DNA of 32,000 nucleotides from Cereibacter sphaeroides 2.4.1 (GCF_000012905.2 NC_007494.2:840001-872000); one strand, 5' to 3'. Numbered from the stretch's first letter, positions 6,446 to 15,303 are shown. Made by a program: numbers and translations. Notes: a model not told the origin generated them from the letters alone.

Positions 6446-7396
6446 TCAGGCCCCGCGCAGGCGCTGGCTCAGGGCGGAAAACCGATCCGGCCCCAGCACC
6501 GACCAGGCCGCCTGCCGCACCAGATGGCGGGCGGCGCTGCGGCTGCGCAGGCGCGGGATCTGGGCGGCGATATGGCCGAGATCGGGCTGGTAGAGCCGCT
6601 GCTCGGGCAAGCACAGCACCGGCCGCCCGGAGAGGCGCATGATCTCGGCGGCCTGCCGCGGCTCGCTCTCGATGAAGAGAAGCGCGTCGCTGTCGCGGTA
6701 GACCGTGGCCTTGAAGCTGCCGTGCGCGCCCCGGCGCATCCGCTCTTCGCGGCTCGGCAAATCCAGCATCGCCAGCCGGTCGAAGGCGATGCCCTGCGCG
6801 GCCAGCCAGGCTTCCGTCTGGGGGCGGTATTTCTCGAGACGGCTGGTGACCAGCATCCCGATCCGCTGGCGCGTGCGGTTGAGCGGACGCGCGTTCAGGA
6901 GGAAGTCGAGATAGGCGGGGCCGTCGTCGTTTTCGGCCTCGCTCGGGTCGTGGCAGAGGATGCCGTCGATATCGACGCAGCAGCGGGCGAGAAACTTGTG
7001 GTGCATCGCGTTCCACTGGAACATGCGCGGTTGCGGCACCGCCTCGAAGATCAGGTCGGCCTCGGGATGCTGCGGCTTCAGCCCGTAGACGGCGGCGTAG
7101 AGCACGCCCTCGCCCCGCCCCGCCAAGGCCACCCGGTCGCGCGCCTCCTGCATGGCGATGCCGGAACTCAGGCTGTCCTCGAGCACGAGGACGCGCCGCT
7201 CGGCGCCGCCTGCGGGCGTGCGCTTCTCGAGGAAATCGTCGAGCGCCACGACCGGCAGGCCCGTGGCCGCGCCCAGCATCTGCGCAGCCAGAAGCCCGCT
7301 CCGCGGGACGCCCACCACGAGATCGAGATCCCGCGGCAGCCGATGCAGGCTCGCGAGGATCGTGCGGTTCATGTCGGCAATCGAGCGGTAGTTCAT
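6446..7396 (-). CDS. Two-domain protein: type I phosphoribosyltransferase-like domain (intact PRPP loop) + HAD-like phosphatase domain (paralog B)
   Basis: 316-aa ORF with GGAG 7 nt upstream of the ATG at 7396. DLVVGVPRSGLLAAQMLG, and a canonical PRPP-binding loop RRVLVLEDSLSSGIAM (four hydrophobic residues, two acidic residues, then a small-residue loop). HAD motifs CVDIDGILC, LVTSR and FIESE. Confidence 0.85.
   Translation of the reverse strand: MNYRSIADMNRTILASLHRLPRDLDLVVGVPRSGLLAAQMLGAATGLPVVALDDFLEKRTPAGGAERRVLVLEDSLSSGIAMQEARDRVALAGRGEGVLYAAVYGLKPQHPEADLIFEAVPQPRMFQWNAMHHKFLARCCVDIDGILCHDPSEAENDDGPAYLDFLLNARPLNRTRQRIGMLVTSRLEKYRPQTEAWLAAQGIAFDRLAMLDLPSREERMRRGAHGSFKATVYRDSDALLFIESEPRQAAEIMRLSGRPVLCLPEQRLYQPDLGHIAAQIPRLRSRSAARHLVRQAAWSVLGPDRFSALSQRLRGA
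6602..7030 (-). repeat. Arm 2 of the diverged inverted repeat (HAD-domain coding region of paralog B)
   Basis: See the arm 1 entry. The two arms are in opposite orientation and flank the glycosyltransferase gene. Confidence 0.6.
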
Positions 7397-8823: not shown

Positions 8824-9900
8824 TCAAACCTCCGGGACGGGATCGGCCTGAGGGCCGCGCGGCATCTCGGTGGGGAAGGTCAGCTCCGACAGGGTGCCGC
8901 CGCCCGGACGCGCGCGGATCGTGAGCGCGCCTCCGATCTGCTCGGCGAACTGCCGCGCGATCGACAGGCCGAGGCTCGTCGTCCCGGTCACCGAGAAGCC
9001 CCGGGGCAGGCCCGCCCCGTCATCCTCGATCACGAGCCGCGCGTGGCCCTCGGCGCTGGCGACCGACAGGCGGATCAGGATCGTCCCGGAGGCGCCGCCC
9101 GCAAAGCCGTGCTCGCAGGCATTCATCAGCAGTTCGCTCGTCACCAGCCCCAGCGGCATCGCCTGATCGGGCTCGGAACGGAAGGAGTCGATCTCATACC
9201 GGCAGGAGATGCGATCGCTTGCATCCATGGCCGCCACCGTATCGCCGGCGAGGCCGCGGATATAGTCGCCCATATCGACGAACTGCCGCGAGGGATCGTG
9301 CAGCCGCCGCTGCAGGCGCGCCACCACCTCGAGGCGGGCCCGCGAGTCCGCCACGGCGGCCCGCGCCTTCGGATCGCCGAGCCGTCTTTCCTGCAGGCGC
9401 AGGAGCGAGCCCAGGGTCGCGATATTGTTCGAGACCCGGTGCTGAAGCTCGTGAAACATGAGCGTGCGGGCATGGGCCAGCGCCGAGCTGCGGGCCTCGG
9501 CTTCGACCATGCGGTGCAGGGCCGCGGTCATCAGATGGACGAGCAGGATGTCGGTCGCCGCGATGAAGGCGAAGAAGAGCATCGCGAACAGCGCAGGCGT
9601 GGTCACCGAGAGCGTGCCGACCGGATGGATGAAGCAATACCAGGCGATGAAGCCCGTCGCGACCGCCACCGCCGATCCGGCCGCCGCCCCCGCGAAGAAG
9701 GCGGTCAGGATGATGGCCGGGAAGAAGGTGAGAAAGGGAAAGCCGGGCGGCAGCACCTCGTCGACCGCGAAGCGCAGGAGGGTCGAGACCGCGACGGCAG
9801 AGAGCACGAAGACGCTCTTGAACAGGGGCGAGCGGCCGGTCGCCCAGCGCAGGACGAACCGGCTCAGCCGGTCCGGCAGTTTCGCAGTGAGCAGTCCCAA
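8824..9900 (-). CDS. Sensor histidine kinase: DUF4118-like membrane domain + HisKA_2/HWE-type dimerisation domain + HATPase
   Basis: 358-aa ORF. The N-terminal hydrophobic block is FPFLTFFPAIILTAFFAGAAAG.... The H-box FHELQHRVSNNIATLGSLLRLQ is HisKA_2 type. The ATPase N and G boxes are ELLMNACEHGF and DDGAGLP...GLGLSIA. The start codon at 9900 is TTG, so the start is uncertain. Confidence 0.8.
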   Translation of the reverse strand: MGLLTAKLPDRLSRFVLRWATGRSPLFKSVFVLSAVAVSTLLRFAVDEVLPPGFPFLTFFPAIILTAFFAGAAAGSAVAVATGFIAWYCFIHPVGTLSVTTPALFAMLFFAFIAATDILLVHLMTAALHRMVEAEARSSALAHARTLMFHELQHRVSNNIATLGSLLRLQERRLGDPKARAAVADSRARLEVVARLQRRLHDPSRQFVDMGDYIRGLAGDTVAAMDASDRISCRYEIDSFRSEPDQAMPLGLVTSELLMNACEHGFAGGASGTILIRLSVASAEGHARLVIEDDGAGLPRGFSVTGTTSLGLSIARQFAEQIGGALTIRARPGGGTLSELTFPTEMPRGPQADPVPEV

Positions 9901-10183
9901 CCTTCAACCCTTCGCTGAACCCGGCGAAACTACAGCAAGCGGTGGCCAATGCAACCGGAGCCGACCCGACGTCCCCCCTCGGACCGGTCACGTTGGTGGC
10001 AAACCGCTCAGCCCTCGCGGGCCCGTGTCCCGGCGATGCGCTGCAGCGCCGTCCGGGCGAGCGGCAGGGGCGCGCCTGCGCCTGCCGCAGCCGCTCGAAG
10101 CGCTCGCGGGCCTCGCGATCCGGCGAGAGGCCGCGATCCGGCTGCATTGCCGCGCGCCGCTCTCGATGCGCGCGCCCCCCGCC

Positions 10184-11893
10184 TCAGGCGGGACCGCCGC
10201 GGCGGCGGCCGGACGGCGGGGCGGCCTGCAGGCAGGCCCGCGCCCAGCTCAGGTCGAGCTCGGCCACCAGCCGATCGACCCCGTCGAGGATCGCCCCGGG
10301 GTCGTCCGGGTCGAGCGTCGGCAGGATCCGCTCCCACAGCATCCGGGCCGGGCCGAACATCATGGCGGGCGCCACGGCCCGCGGCCGGGGCTCGGCGCTC
10401 GCCTGCGGCGCTGGCCTGCCCGGCCCCTGCAGGGGGGCGTCCGCCGCGATCTCGTGGTCCACAGCATCCGACGTCAGGGAGGGCTCCGACTGATCCGGCG
10501 TCCCGGCCTTCCTGGACAGAGCTCCGGCCTCCAACATTTGGGATGGGTCCGGCGTGCGGGCCCCTCCAGGCAGGGCACCGGCCACGCGAGCCTCGGCGGT
10601 CGCCTCGCCAGCGTCGGCCTCCGACGAGAGCGGAGTCGAAGGCTGGGGCGTCCCGATCGTCTCACGCAGAAGGGCAAGGAAGGCCCCATCGTCGGCCGCC
10701 TCAACCGGTTCCGGCGGCGCGGTTTGGGCGGCATCCGCCCCATCCTCATAGCGCGGCGCGGTCTCCGGCTCCGGGAGATCGAGGTCCGGGGACGGGTCCC
10801 CGACCGAGCGGTTCTCCTGCCCGGAGGCCAGCGCGGGCGAGGGCGAGATCGGGAGAAGCTCCTCTCCCCGGGCCGCTTCCTCATCGCCGGGGCCTCCCTC
10901 GGGCGCGCTCTCGACGTGTGTCGGCCCGTCCGCGCCCATCGGGAGGTGCGCCGCGCCCAAAGCTGCCGACTCCTCTCTTTCGTGCCCCTCTTCCGCATCA
11001 AGTGGAGAAGCGACGCCCGGATCGTCGGGAAGCCAATCCCCGCCGGAGACGGCGTGCCCGTCCGGCGGCGCGCCCTCGCGCGCGGACGCATCCGCCGGAT
11101 CGACGAGCAGGAGCGGTGCGGGCGCGGCCGAGCGTCCGCGGACGCGCCGCGGCACGATGCGCGTCCGGGCAGGATCGTCCGCAGGCTCCTGAACGGGGCG
11201 CCGCGGCAGGGCGGCCGCCGCTTCGCGCAGCGCAAGCCGCAGGGCGCCCACATCGGCCTCGGCCAAGAACGAGGCCATATGCACCGCCGCGAACAACCCC
11301 TCCACCTCGCGCAGGACGCGGCGCATGACCTTGCCCCTGTCCTCGTCCCGCACGAGCCTGTCGGCCTGCGACAGGACCAGAAGGCTCGGCGCCGTGAGCG
11401 CCGCGGGCAGCGCCGCCCAGGCGGATTTCTCGCTCTGCCGCCAGGCCTGCACCGCCGGAGAGCACCAGACCACCATGTCGGCCTCGGGCACCATCCGCTC
11501 CCAGCTGGCCGCGGGCATCCCGGGATCCGAGCCGCCGGGCGTGTCGATCAGGTCGAACGCGCGCAGGAGCGGGCTCGGATGGGCCAGGCGGCAGTGCGAG
11601 ATGCGCTCGAGATCGGTCCCGTCGAGATGGGCCAGCATCTCGGCCAGCGAAGCGAAGCGCTGCACCGTGCCGTCGAGGAACAGGCAGTCGGGTGCGCCCT
11701 CGCCGTGACGGATCCAGATCGGCGGCAGCGCCGTCGAGGTGACCGACGCGGGCAGCAGATCCTCGCCCAGAAGCGCGTTCACAAGGCTCGTCTTGCCCGA
11801 GCTGAACTCGCCCGCCACGAGGATGCGCGGTCGCGCCGCCTGAACGGCCGCCGTCTCTCCCACGACCTCGGACAGTTCCAGAGGCAGGTTCAT
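10184..11893 (-). CDS. Dynamin-family-like P-loop GTPase (~230-aa G domain) with a long acidic/Pro-rich disordered region and a short C-terminal helical module
   Basis: 569-aa ORF. G1 is GEFSSGKTSLVNALLG, G3 is LIDTPGG and the G4-like motif is LSQADRL. GGGGAG lies 4 nt upstream of the ATG at 11893, which overlaps the upstream gene's TGA (ATGA). Hand-checked codon periodicity in the low-complexity part (10741-10800) gives about 85/50/85 % G+C at positions 1, 2 and 3, which supports this frame. Confidence 0.8.
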   Translation of the reverse strand: MNLPLELSEVVGETAAVQAARPRILVAGEFSSGKTSLVNALLGEDLLPASVTSTALPPIWIRHGEGAPDCLFLDGTVQRFASLAEMLAHLDGTDLERISHCRLAHPSPLLRAFDLIDTPGGSDPGMPAASWERMVPEADMVVWCSPAVQAWRQSEKSAWAALPAALTAPSLLVLSQADRLVRDEDRGKVMRRVLREVEGLFAAVHMASFLAEADVGALRLALREAAAALPRRPVQEPADDPARTRIVPRRVRGRSAAPAPLLLVDPADASAREGAPPDGHAVSGGDWLPDDPGVASPLDAEEGHEREESAALGAAHLPMGADGPTHVESAPEGGPGDEEAARGEELLPISPSPALASGQENRSVGDPSPDLDLPEPETAPRYEDGADAAQTAPPEPVEAADDGAFLALLRETIGTPQPSTPLSSEADAGEATAEARVAGALPGGARTPDPSQMLEAGALSRKAGTPDQSEPSLTSDAVDHEIAADAPLQGPGRPAPQASAEPRPRAVAPAMMFGPARMLWERILPTLDPDDPGAILDGVDRLVAELDLSWARACLQAAPPSGRRRGGPA

Positions 11894-13869
11894 GCCGCTC
11901 CCCTTTGCGCCATCTCATCCGTCGCCGGACGCTCCATCGCGTCCAGCACCGCCGTCACGAACCCCGCCTGCCGCGTGCAGAAGGCACGGGCGGCCTCGGA
12001 CAGGGCATCGCAGAAGAGGGTAAATTCTTCCTTTGCGACCGCCTCGATCATGGGCCGAGTCTCGTCGGCGATCAGCGCGCGGTAGCGGCTCGCCAGCTCT
12101 TGGGGGGCGGCGCGGCGCTGGAAGAACCGCCGCCACCACGCGGTCTGCATGTCGAGCGCGATCGCCTGCGCGATCGGCCCCGGCGCCTGCGGCACCGGCC
12201 CCTGGGGCAGATGGAAGGCCACGCTGCCCTCGGGCACGGCAAGGTCGCCGCAGAGGATCCGCCCGTAGCCCTCGGCCGCCTCGGCGGTGCAGTCGGCCAG
12301 CGCGTCGCGCCCGGCCTTGGCCGCCGCGAGATAGGCCGAGCGGATCATCATCCGCAGCGCGGTCGGATCGCAGCGCCAGCCCTCGCCGTCGCCACAGGCC
12401 GCGATATGCGCGGCGAGGGCCGCGACCGCCCCCTCGACGAACTGCTCCTGCGCCCGGCCGAGCCGATCCGAGAGGGCCGCCGCAGCCTCGGCCAGCCGCG
12501 CCGCAAGACGGGTCTCGCAGAGCCTTGCCACCTCGGCCGCGCGCGCCTCGATGCCGGCGCGGTCCACCCGCCGCGCGGGCTGGCTGCGCGCCACCACATC
12601 GACCGTCTCCACCTCCGAGATGACATTGCCGGTCTCGGCCCGGATGTCGGCCAGCATCGCCTGTCCGGGCCCCTCGACCACGCGGCGCGCGATGGCCGCG
12701 CGCAGTTTCGGCACGCCGGAGGCCTCGAAGGCCATGCGGCAGAGGTCCCCCTCCTCGCGCAGCCCCTGCTCGGCCGCCCAGAGACGCAGCGCCGCGCGGC
12801 TGGCCGCCGGAAGCGTCTCGCAGCGGTCCTCGAGCGCGCGCACGGCCCAGAGCGCGCTGCCGAAGAGGATGGTAAGGCCCGCGCCCACCTCCGCCGCCGC
12901 AAGCGTGCGGCGCATCGCGGTCTCGATCTCGCGGCACTGCGCGGCCGGATCGGCCAGCTCGTCGATCCGGTTGACGAAGAGCAGAACCTCGCGCGCCTCG
13001 ACATTGCCGATGATGCGCAGAAGCGCCATGTCCATCGTCGTCAGCGCCTGATGCGCCGAGAGGACGATCACGCAGACAGGGCTTTCGCTGATGGCGTTGA
13101 GCGTGATCTGCTCGCGCATCAGGACCGTGTCGTTCACGCCGGGGGTATCGCGCAGGCACAGGTTCTGCGGATAGCCCGGCAGATCGAGATAGAGATCGGC
13201 CGTGCGGGTGAGGTCGGCATAGAAGCCCTGCCCGCCCGCAGAGGCCTCGGCCGGGTCGCCGTAGCAGATGTAGCGGTCGATGATCTCGGAACGGAGGTCG
13301 GGGAAGGCATGGCTGCTGCCGAGCAGCGTCTCGAAGGCGGAGCCGAGCCGGGCCTCCGTCGCCCGGCGCATCCGCATCACCTGCGCCCGCACCTCCTCGG
13401 CCTCGTCGGTGAAGCCGGCGCGCCGCGCCATCTCGCCGAGCCGCCCGCCGGTGAGGGCCAGCCGCTCCCACTCCAGCGCATCGAAGAAGCGGAACAGCGC
13501 GCGCGTCTTAAGCGGGCGGCGTGGCGAATTCAGGTGGACGTTGGTGATGACCGAGGTCCAGGGGTTCACATCCGCCGGAAGGAAGCCCGGCCGCCCGATC
13601 AGCGCGTTGAGCAGCGTGCTCTTGCCGGCCTTCACCTGACCGAGCAGGCTCACCGAAGGTTCGAACGCGTCGATCCGCTCGACGATCCGGTCGAGGTCGG
13701 TGCGCAGCGCGGGCGTGGCATCGCTCGCGAGCTCCAGCAGGGCCTCGCGGATGCGGCCGAGGCTCGCCCGGTAGCTCTCCAGCTCCTCGAACGCCGGCCG
13801 CCCGAGGGGAGAGACAGGCTCGGTCTTCTCGGCGAAATCGCGCACACTCCATCTCCGCAGCCGGGCCAT
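11890..13869 (-). CDS. Bacterial dynamin-like protein (large GTPase with helical stalk-like C-terminal half)
   Basis: Track ORF 11890-14856 trimmed to the ATG at 13869 (MARLRRWSVRDFAEK...). The G1 motif is GQVKAGKSTLLNALIG, followed by the dynamin-like PADVNPWTSVIT. G3 is LRDTPGVND and G4 is FVNRIDEL. This is followed by ~330 aa of Ala/Arg/Glu-rich helical sequence. An alternative GTG start at 13845 has better SD spacing. Confidence 0.85.
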   Translation of the reverse strand: MARLRRWSVRDFAEKTEPVSPLGRPAFEELESYRASLGRIREALLELASDATPALRTDLDRIVERIDAFEPSVSLLGQVKAGKSTLLNALIGRPGFLPADVNPWTSVITNVHLNSPRRPLKTRALFRFFDALEWERLALTGGRLGEMARRAGFTDEAEEVRAQVMRMRRATEARLGSAFETLLGSSHAFPDLRSEIIDRYICYGDPAEASAGGQGFYADLTRTADLYLDLPGYPQNLCLRDTPGVNDTVLMREQITLNAISESPVCVIVLSAHQALTTMDMALLRIIGNVEAREVLLFVNRIDELADPAAQCREIETAMRRTLAAAEVGAGLTILFGSALWAVRALEDRCETLPAASRAALRLWAAEQGLREEGDLCRMAFEASGVPKLRAAIARRVVEGPGQAMLADIRAETGNVISEVETVDVVARSQPARRVDRAGIEARAAEVARLCETRLAARLAEAAAALSDRLGRAQEQFVEGAVAALAAHIAACGDGEGWRCDPTALRMMIRSAYLAAAKAGRDALADCTAEAAEGYGRILCGDLAVPEGSVAFHLPQGPVPQAPGPIAQAIALDMQTAWWRRFFQRRAAPQELASRYRALIADETRPMIEAVAKEEFTLFCDALSEAARAFCTRQAGFVTAVLDAMERPATDEMAQRGAA

Positions 13870-13963
13870 CTCCGCAGTCGGGCGACCCGTCGGTCCACGC
13901 CCGAGGCGGGACCGGCCGTCTCGCCATCCGCATAGGACTTCAGTGATGGCGGGGGAATGTGAT

Positions 13964-14185: not shown

Positions 14186-14212
14186 AAAAAACCGCGCCCG
14201 AGGGGGCGCGGT
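14186..14212 (-). terminator. Rho-independent terminator of azoR
   Basis: On the minus strand: ACCGCGCCC-cctc-GGGCGCGGT, a 9-bp GC stem followed by TTTTT, starting 25 nt after the azoR stop. Confidence 0.7.
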
Positions 14213-14237: not shown

Positions 14238-14828
14238 TCAGGCGGCGAGGGCTGCCACGGCGGCCTCGGCCCGGGCCATGGCCTCGTCGGCGCCGAAGAC
14301 CATGCGGTCGGCCGCCACGAAGTCCACATCGGTGATGCCCACGAAACCCAGCACCTGCCGCAGCCAGCCCGAGGCATGATCGAGCTCGGACCCCAGCGGC
14401 GTGCCGTCCGAGGTGAAGGCCACGATGGCACGCTTGCCGGTGAGCAGGCCGACGGGGCCGGTCTCGGTATAGACGAAGCTCTCGCCGCGGCGGGCGATAT
14501 GGTCGACCCAGCTCTTGAGCTGCGCGGGGGCGCCGAAGTTGTAGACCGGCAGCGCGATCACCAGAATATCGGCTTCCTTCACCTCGGCCATCACGGCGCC
14601 GGCGGTGCGGGCGATCTCCTGCTGATCGGCGGTGCGCTGCTCGGGCGCGGTGAAGACCGAGCCGAGCCACGGGCCGTCGATCTGACGGATGCCCTGGGCG
14701 AGGTCTCGCGAGACGACCGTCGCATCGGGATGCGCTTCCAGAAGCCGGTCGAGGATGCGCTGGGTGAGACGGCGCGAGACGGCAGCCTCGCCCTTGATGG
14801 AACTGTCGATGCGGAGGATGGTGGTCAT
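14238..14828 (-). CDS. azoR: FMN-dependent NADH-azoreductase
   Basis: Track ORF trimmed to the ATG at 14828, with GAGG upstream. MTTILRIDSSIKGEAAVSRRL...ADILVIALPVYNFGAPAQLKSWVDHI... is the canonical AzoR/flavodoxin-like-fold pattern. Length is 196 aa. Confidence 0.9.
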   Translation of the reverse strand: MTTILRIDSSIKGEAAVSRRLTQRILDRLLEAHPDATVVSRDLAQGIRQIDGPWLGSVFTAPEQRTADQQEIARTAGAVMAEVKEADILVIALPVYNFGAPAQLKSWVDHIARRGESFVYTETGPVGLLTGKRAIVAFTSDGTPLGSELDHASGWLRQVLGFVGITDVDFVAADRMVFGADEAMARAEAAVAALAA

Positions 14829-15303
14829 GGCGGATACCTCTGTTGGCTGTGGCCAATCACATGGCATTAGACCGATCCGCAAGCAACGCGCGCCGGCGCG
14901 CGAGACTTGTGCAAGGGCGAACAGATCTCCTCCGCGTCAGCCGGGGCGGCATCGAGGTCGCCCCCCGAAGGTCGCGCCAGAAGAAAACCTGTTCGAAAGC
15001 GCCGGAGACGGGCCGGCAGCGGCAGGATGGGGCGCCGCGCCGGCGGGATCAGCTGGCCACGTCGCCCGGCCCCGCGCACCGGGGCCTTTCGGCAAGACCG
15101 GCGCGGCGCCGTGGCAGGGCCCGAAGGGCACCTTCGCCATGCTTATGCTGCGCCCCGATCCATCCGCTCGGATGAGCATGGGCAGTGGCACCGTCCAACG
15201 GATGAGCGCACCCGACTCCTGTCCATATTTCCACCGCTGCAGGCGGATGCGACAAGGAGGGGCGCTCGCCTTCCGCCCAGTACCTTCAGCCGGTGACAGT
15301 CCC

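Follow-up and report, generated by a model that had tools for sequence, protein, structure and literature searches.

A 32,000-nucleotide stretch of chromosome 2 of Cereibacter sphaeroides 2.4.1 (NC_007494.2:840001-872000; the whole of it is called the window here, and coordinates are counted from its first letter) carries two adjacent minus-strand genes for dynamin-family GTPases. Gene 1 encodes a long protein with a G domain and a helical stalk, and gene 2 a short protein with a G domain followed by a long disordered tail. The ancestry of the two G domains and the gene order identify the pair as one of the common operon pairs of DLP1/DLP2 type (DLP, dynamin-like protein), in which the DLP2-type member has neither neck nor trunk. 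Reasoning by analogy with characterized pairs, we lean towards the view that the two products form a heteromeric bacterial dynamin-like machine of a reduced DLP1/DLP2 type, in which the stalkless gene 2 protein would activate the gene 1 protein by G-domain dimerization. The genes and their junction are as follows.

11890..13869, minus strand: gene 1, long bacterial dynamin-like protein (659 amino acids from ATG 13869; 651 from the alternative GTG 13845)
10184..11893, minus strand: gene 2, stalkless dynamin-like GTPase (open reading frame of 569 amino acids; Pfam Dynamin_N match; AlphaFold2 model)
11890..11893, minus strand: ATGA stop/start overlap of gene 1 and gene 2 (read from the sequence; a -4 overlap is also found in orthologous loci)
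11898..11906, minus strand: Shine-Dalgarno-like AAAGGGGAG in the 3' end of gene 1 (GGAG ends 4 nucleotides 5' of the gene 2 ATG; read directly)

A coupled and co-conserved pair of dynamin-family GTPases

As stated in the preliminary description of this DNA, the two open reading frames (ORFs) overlap in ATGA: the TGA of gene 1 (11892-11890) overlaps the ATG of gene 2 (11893-11891), and the junction reads AAAGGGGAGCGGCATGA. The Shine-Dalgarno-like site adds to the case for translational coupling. Public annotations are split between the two gene 1 starts, which lie eight codons apart. A 17-bp tandem duplication, CCATCTCCGCAGCCGGG, present in 2.1 copies (window 13849-13883), lies across the annotated ATG.

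Both proteins are dynamin-family GTPases. They exceed the Pfam Dynamin_N cutoff of 27 bits (48 bits for gene 1 and 44 bits for gene 2), and their top Foldseek matches all belong to the dynamin family. The G motifs already quoted for them are all present where expected, GQVKAGKST (residues 77-85), DTPGVND (241-247) and NRID (300-303) in gene 1 and GEFSSGKT (28-35), DTPGG (117-121) and SQAD (175-178) in gene 2, and vary little or not at all in family alignments. A helical neck and trunk is present in gene 1 (residues 355-658 of the AlphaFold2 model) and not in gene 2. Pfam, NCBIfam and Foldseek thus agree with the original assignment to dynamin-type rather than Era/EngA/YeeP-like GTPases. For an Era/Der/HflX-type GTPase the best NCBIfam score is 38 bits for Der, against a cutoff of 306.7, and dynamins rank first structurally. 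The NCBIfam equivalogs Der, Era, HflX, CrfC and DynA fall one to two orders of magnitude short: the two proteins score 14.7 and 9.2 bits with CrfC (CrfC/YjdA; cutoff 1146) and 14 and 24.6 bits with DynmDynABac (DynA; cutoff 1600). In the sources examined, the only name in use for either protein is 'dynamin family protein'.

The two G domains differ in their closest relatives of known structure. Searched by sequence against the PDB, gene 1 prefers Campylobacter jejuni Cj-DLP1 (E = 6.9e-8) over Cj-DLP2 (0.025), with BDLP also favoured. The single gene 2 sequence matches Cj-DLP2 (7.4e-11), with no Cj-DLP1 match at E <= 1, and with the gene 2 family profile Cj-DLP2 (5owv_C, E = 2e-13, the G domain being covered in full) leads all other PDB chains by a wide margin, Cj-DLP1 following at 0.0029. 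The operon therefore consists of a DLP1-like gene and, after it, a DLP2-like gene, with reciprocal best PDB matches and an overlap that has been kept. Bacterial DLPs are typically encoded in tandem (PMC6104087, PMC4159319), and most of them form operon pairs (PMC6104087). Since the present genes combine this arrangement with DLP1- and DLP2-like G domains, they are a variant of a known theme and not a separate system. The architecture had been set down as not a familiar one, and in one respect rightly so: the literature on Rhodobacter and other alphaproteobacteria yielded no account of the family, and in the literature searched no DLP partner is described in which a complete G domain is joined to an intrinsically disordered tail and the stalk is missing.

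In a scan of species-representative genomes, at least 577 species have a relative of gene 1, and the best 80 loci, all from Rhodobacterales, were compared in detail. These comprise a closer ortholog group (group A, 31 loci), which includes Rhodobacter sp. NSM, C. ovatus, Paracoccus, Thioclava and Neomegalonema, and a more distant, roseobacter-type group (group B, 49 loci). A short-type gene directly follows the long gene in at least 76 of these 80 best loci, which come from different species, and three of the exceptions lie at contig ends. The short gene begins with a -4 start codon (ATGA, GTGA or TTGA) in nearly all group A loci and in many of group B. Judged by this arrangement, the linkage is beyond chance and the genes are tightly coupled and co-conserved, as had been anticipated. 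The identity of gene 1 relatives drops roughly in step with taxonomic distance.

The long protein has a complete stalk and a conserved Trp-rich loop

The AlphaFold2 model of gene 1, computed from an 86-sequence alignment, has a predicted local distance difference test score (pLDDT) of 85 and a predicted template modelling score of 0.84. Its principal parts are listed here.

12832..13656, minus strand: gene 1 G domain, residues ~72-346, with a helical insert at ~131-182 (invariant G1/G3/G4 motifs GQVKAGKST, DTPG and NRID; AlphaFold2 secondary structure)
11896..12807, minus strand: gene 1 helical stalk, residues 355-658 (AlphaFold2; whole-chain Foldseek matches to BDLP, IniA and Cj-DLP1/2)
12112..12174, minus strand: Trp-rich basic motif IAQAIALDMQTAWWRRFFQRR, residues 566-586, candidate paddle equivalent (alignment conservation; loop position in the AlphaFold2 model)

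Two N-terminal helices (residues 28-67) precede the G domain, and the stalk is built of long helices at residues 386-428, 437-492, 503-542 and 589-646. The best Foldseek match in the PDB is Nostoc BDLP (2j69, E = 1.3e-10, template modelling score 0.44), and further matches include IniA (0.41-0.52), SynDLP, Cj-DLP1, Cj-DLP2 and LeoA (E = 1.2e-5).

In the model, stalk helices 3 and 4 are connected by a loop (residues 543-588) that holds IALDMQTAWWRRFF. Its aromatic core WWRRFF occupies residues 578-583 and is encoded at 12121-12138, in agreement with the preliminary description. Among the 86 sequences, D573 and W579 do not vary and W578 is kept in at least 90%; distant orthologs carry the variants WWKGWW and WWRKFW at the same site, so that the motif is kept in both ortholog groups. 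The paddle of BDLP lies at the distal end of the stalk (PMC6104087). From the modelled fold, we infer that the Trp-rich loop sits at the end of the stalk farthest from the G domain, the topological site of that paddle, a placement that follows from the antiparallel order of the helices and not from coordinates. Both proteins had been described as devoid of a paddle and of transmembrane hairpins. Neither has a transmembrane-like segment, the top 19-residue Kyte-Doolittle means (1.58 and 1.41) both falling within the G-domain core; the description of gene 1 as paddle-less has to be revised in view of an invariant Trp-rich motif at the apparent topological position of the paddle.

The short protein is a stalkless GTPase with a disordered tail

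Gene 2 is organized as a folded N-terminal G domain and a tail, with the following elements.

11204..11836, minus strand: gene 2 G domain, residues ~20-230 (pLDDT >90; G1 GEFSSGKT, G2 T54, G3 DTPG, G4 SQAD)
11141..11158, minus strand: IVPRRV linear motif, residues 246-251 (P248 nearly invariant in the alignment)
10358..11191, minus strand: disordered linker, residues 235-512 (pLDDT <50; Ala 19%, Pro 15%, Glu+Asp 18%, net charge -32)
10223..10351, minus strand: C-terminal helical hairpin, residues 515-557, GPARMLWERILPTLDPDDPGAILDGVDRLVAELD... (pLDDT 79-96; alignment conservation)

The best Foldseek matches of the G domain are MFN2, IniA, Cj-DLP2, MFN1 and BDLP, all near E = 1e-11. The AlphaFold2 model contains no stalk: residues 1-20 are unstructured, residues 235-512 are disordered in a linker rich in Gly as well as in Ala, Pro, Glu and Asp, and the only other folded part is the 43-residue C-terminal hairpin. 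The initial picture of a G domain and a disordered region alone is thus right as to the missing stalk and incomplete as to the tail, which also contains IVPRRV and a folded, conserved hairpin. The pattern [IVLM][IVLMAT]PRR[IVLP] is found in 38 of 84 short proteins of the pair-1 type, and PRR stands at a similar place in 18 more; the remaining short paralogs lack it. A hidden Markov model of the hairpin and the G domain match one and the same ORF in 22 loci, all in the closer group. Otherwise the tail of the short proteins is hypervariable in length and sequence, and homologs range from ~250 to 700 amino acids in total. No counterpart to the group A-only hairpin was found among the indels of gene 1, in whose alignment a 13-residue C-terminal insertion in group B is the sole group-specific indel and is uninformative.

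Gene 1 and gene 2 both pass the codon-position GC test (GC content at third codon positions, GC3, 0.90 and 0.86). This composition shows gene 2 to be a single translated ORF, as does a C-terminal motif that, in 22 related loci, is still in frame beyond the variable linker. Within the linker the codon-position asymmetry is weaker (GC1 0.82, GC3 0.81). This weaker signal and the hypervariability of the tail are what might be expected if gene 2 were a decaying full-length DLP, functionless and with its stalk degraded to low-complexity sequence. We find that explanation scarcely credible: strong conservation of the G domain, whose catalytic motifs are invariant, extends over a gene 2-type family of 263 clusters at 50% identity (E <= 1e-30), nearly all of them an N-terminal G domain plus tail; the in-frame hairpin and the PRR motif are conserved; and the stalkless architecture is stable across the order and repeated in paralogous pairs. 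Gene 2 homologs with N-terminal extensions (P0217, P0243 and others) were considered as domain fusions; they carry no extra Pfam domains and are probably over-extended gene calls.

Comparison with characterized dynamin-like systems

The C. jejuni pair is, to our knowledge, the only heterotypic DLP pair of known structure, and both of its partners have stalks. In PDB sequence searches Cj-DLP1 and Cj-DLP2 (5OWV/5OXF) rank first or nearly so, DLP1 for gene 1 and DLP2 for gene 2; the order of cj0411-cj0412 is the same as here, and both partners have intact GTPase motifs. Each protein is nearly inactive alone, a helix on a random-coil linker joins them, and their assembly triggers GTPase activity, likely via a G-domain dimer, as well as lipid binding (PMC6104087). 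They therefore offer a model for two DLPs that are coupled by a flexible linker and activated by assembly. The present proteins differ from them at the points of contact. The 119-residue N-terminal assembly domain of Cj-DLP1 is not found in gene 1, which has ~70 residues and two helices before its G domain, and the N-terminal H1 helix, neck and trunk of Cj-DLP2 are not found in gene 2, which has instead the ~280-residue disordered tail and C-terminal hairpin. Without neck and trunk, gene 2 cannot contribute to a back-to-back stalk dimer of the kind at the centre of the Cj tetramer.

Nostoc punctiforme BDLP1 (2J68/2J69) and Mycobacterium IniA (6J72/6J73), the top structural matches of gene 1 (E = 1e-10 to 1e-7, template modelling scores 0.41-0.52), share with it a G domain, helical bundles and a lipid-binding element at the distal tip, for which gene 1 offers a candidate. 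Identity to gene 1 is just 13-14%, and where BDLP1 has a hydrophobic paddle, gene 1 has a short Trp/Arg-rich candidate tip motif. Their operon partners, BDLP2 and IniC, are full-length and not stalkless (PMC4159319, PMC6104087). An IniA/IniB/IniC system was also rejected for the present genes, whose short member is stalkless and which have no third gene between or beside them in the window.

LeoABC/Eleos (PDB 4AUR) is also a tandem DLP operon with one unconventional partner, and gives weak PADLOC matches here. In Leo, the G domain is split, LeoC comprising the P-loop, switch 1 and a transmembrane anchor and LeoB the rest including the stalk (PMC4159319), so that LeoB and LeoC together rebuild a full DLP; the G domain of gene 2, in contrast, is complete, and the protein lacks both a stalk and a transmembrane segment. 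The earlier expectation that no known system would match the pair from end to end held for Eleos, IniA/IniC, DynA and LeoABC in PADLOC and NCBIfam. Mini-mitofusins, internal-deletion forms of MFN1, MFN2 and Fzo1 (5GOM, 6JFK, 9KFF), are among the best matches of gene 2 (E ~1e-11 to 1e-10, root mean square deviation 3.4-4). They resemble it formally in the succession of G domain, linker and C-terminal helix, but they are laboratory constructs with a four-helix HD1.

Genomic context and alternative roles

In group A, a second long-plus-short pair lies immediately downstream of the first in all loci but one, which is at a contig end, and a third pair follows in six. Examples of such tandem pairs among the group A loci (L002-L032) are L002:7812-14880 and L012:7962-16764. 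C. sphaeroides has a single pair at this locus, against two in Rhodobacter sp. NSM and Cereibacter ovatus, which suggests that the second pair was lost or relocated.

The neighbours of the pair in the window are genes for ABC transporters, glutathione S-transferase, AzoR, a kinase, glycan functions and sugar catabolism, with no defence or mobile gene among the window genes. The neighbourhood of a histidine kinase and glycan genes, which the preliminary description had set beside the pair, is not syntenic with it in other genomes: a functional tie was rejected, the kinase homolog lying elsewhere in C. ovatus and being absent from the other loci. Adjacency to AzoR is shared only with Rhodobacter sp. 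NSM.

A link to defence had also been raised, and an Eleos-type (LeoA/LeoBC) anti-phage system, in which two consecutive dynamin-like GTPases guard the membrane or block the phage, does resemble the pair: Eleos is an operon of two consecutive DLPs and needs both P-loops (bioRxiv 10.1101/2022.05.11.491447), and PADLOC LeoA and LeoBC profiles match gene 1 and the P-loop of gene 2 in part. These matches are weak and do not run end to end, LeoA scoring 41.6 bits on residues 236-476 of gene 1 only, LeoBC 18.9 bits on gene 1, and LeoA 22 bits on gene 2 in the P-loop region only; moreover, gene 2 is unlike LeoBC, which has ~600 amino acids. Eleos is patchy, being found in ~1% of genomes with 60% of its occurrences in defence islands (bioRxiv 10.1101/2022.05.11.491447), whereas the present family spans its clade, being carried by at least 577 Rhodobacterales species in conserved local synteny, with identity that roughly tracks taxonomy. 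The defence link thus draws no support from a clade-wide family among metabolic, transport and glycan genes, and we regard such a role as very unlikely.

Group B loci have a context of their own. On the strand of the pair, 27-36 of the 49 have upstream genes for a Ser/Thr kinase anchored in the membrane by a C-terminal transmembrane segment, an FHA-domain protein, a PP2C phosphatase and a third short GTPase of the dynamin-like type. These genes lie directly before the pair and, together with the conserved small accessory ORFs that flank pairs and a report of the E. coli DLP YjdA/RdcA as a signal input to a diguanylate cyclase (PMC6510439), they speak for a signalling GTPase module, in which gene 2, and perhaps gene 1, would be a nucleotide-dependent switch and the disordered tail a scaffold, regulated by phosphorylation, for the recruitment or control of other proteins. 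However, kinase, FHA and PP2C genes are missing from C. sphaeroides and its group among the loci compared, and gene 1 retains a complete BDLP-like stalk and an aromatic motif typical of membrane-binding DLPs. A role in signalling as such appears rather unlikely to us, and it would be compatible with remodelling, as phosphorylation could gate a remodeller.

Examples of the group B context genes (loci L033-L081) are L036:2638-4449, L037:4644-5579, L041:5556-6578 and L043:5990-7345. The third short GTPase has a G3 motif that looks degenerate, ETVAP instead of DTPG. Matches of the kinase to PD-T4-6 and mad6 were judged to reflect generic Hanks-kinase similarity. A conserved ORF of ~125 amino acids lies 3' of the pair in 37 of the 49 group B loci, and small conserved ORF families of ~106, ~125 and 115-160 amino acids flank pairs elsewhere in Rhodobacterales (L010:7534-7854, L069:5528-5926 and L010:14920-15405 are the respective examples). 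None of these families has a Pfam match at E <= 10, the ~106- and ~125-residue families also have no PDB profile match, and the latter two show no detectable relationship to each other; a Roadblock/LC7-like look of the ~106-residue family, noticed by eye, was unsupported by any search.

The host itself, a phototroph with extensive membrane invaginations, could suggest a specialized factor that builds or divides the photosynthetic intracytoplasmic membrane (chromatophores), since DLPs remodel membranes. Orthologous pairs are, however, present in many genera, among them Paracoccus, Thioclava, Tropicibacter, Roseivivax and Neomegalonema, several of which are not known as phototrophs, and no photosynthesis genes adjoin the pair. 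Such a role is highly improbable.

A candidate mechanism

For the heteromeric machine that we favour, the analogy with known DLPs suggests a division of labour. Gene 1 would be the membrane-engaging subunit, its Trp-rich basic distal loop lying in the lipid interface. Gene 2 may descend, to judge from its sequence, from a DLP2-type protein that lost neck and trunk and kept a catalytically intact G domain. Translational coupling would supply both proteins in fixed proportion. The tail of gene 2, through IVPRRV, the hairpin or both, could then hold gene 1, with the acidic disordered linker acting as a flexible leash; the G domains of the two proteins would dimerize across the nucleotide pocket; and dimerization would switch on GTP hydrolysis by gene 1 and its conformational cycle on the cytoplasmic membrane. 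Most probably the result would be tethering, fusion or repair of membranes, in line with proposals for DynA, IniA and Cj-DLP1/2. The present analysis establishes the family, the folds, the coupling and co-conservation of the genes and the conservation of the motifs; we infer the physical interaction, the activation between G domains, the binding to membranes and the physiological role from these likenesses.

Several observations weigh against this mechanism. The hairpin is confined to 22 loci of the closer ortholog group, and is therefore not a universal coupling element. The assembly domain and H1 helix of the Cj proteins are absent here, so that coupling, if any, must differ from that of the Cj pair. 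For the WWRRFF segment the hydrophobic moment, 0.4-0.5, does not stand out.

A broader and more tentative proposal, which we hold to be possible though doubtful, is that the pairs constitute a hitherto unrecognized, Rhodobacterales-wide class of dynamin machine, in which a membrane-binding long DLP is driven by a leashed, stalkless, DLP2-derived co-GTPase, arrays of two or three pairs occur, and in roseobacters a phospho-switch of membrane-anchored Ser/Thr kinase, FHA and PP2C gates the activity; the class would then serve signal-controlled membrane remodelling or repair. On this proposal the short partner would be a natural case of separation of function, in which G-domain heterodimerization alone, with no second stalk, suffices to run a DLP.

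The family bears on why bacterial dynamins are paired and on their cellular role. Its short member is a natural minimal partner, with a G domain but no stalk; the family also offers a genetically tractable model organism that has a single pair at the locus, and a very large ortholog set. Should the short protein indeed activate the long one, the essential contribution of the second subunit would be its G domain, and the pair would be a clean system in which GTPase activation can be separated from stalk assembly. In the literature searched, neither multi-pair DLP arrays nor a linkage of DLPs to kinase, FHA and PP2C genes is described; with the roseobacter linkage, bacterial DLPs would gain a regulatory context that is new for them.

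Other features of the locus

Among long ORFs in other frames or on the other strand at the locus, none passes the codon-position GC test. One of 875 amino acids on the plus strand (window 9458-12085), antisense to gene 2 and extending into gene 1, failed it and is most likely an artefact of high GC content. An ORF of 988 amino acids is an upstream extension that overlaps the AzoR-like gene. In the glycan cluster, a minus-strand ORF of 316 amino acids (window 6446-7396) has a GC3 typical of coding sequence (0.91) and no Pfam match at E <= 1e-5. Rfam returned zero families within the window, a tandem-repeat search of the window gave trivial repeats only, and a promoter and terminator pattern scan reported nothing, the following hairpin included.

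14186..14210, minus strand: terminator-like hairpin and T-run 3' of the AzoR-like gene (identified by eye: cgcgccc-cctc-gggcgcg-g-tttttt)

The GC-rich hairpin and its six Ts, which follow the AzoR-like gene (14238-14882), suggest that the pair has a promoter of its own in the ~316 nucleotides upstream of gene 1.

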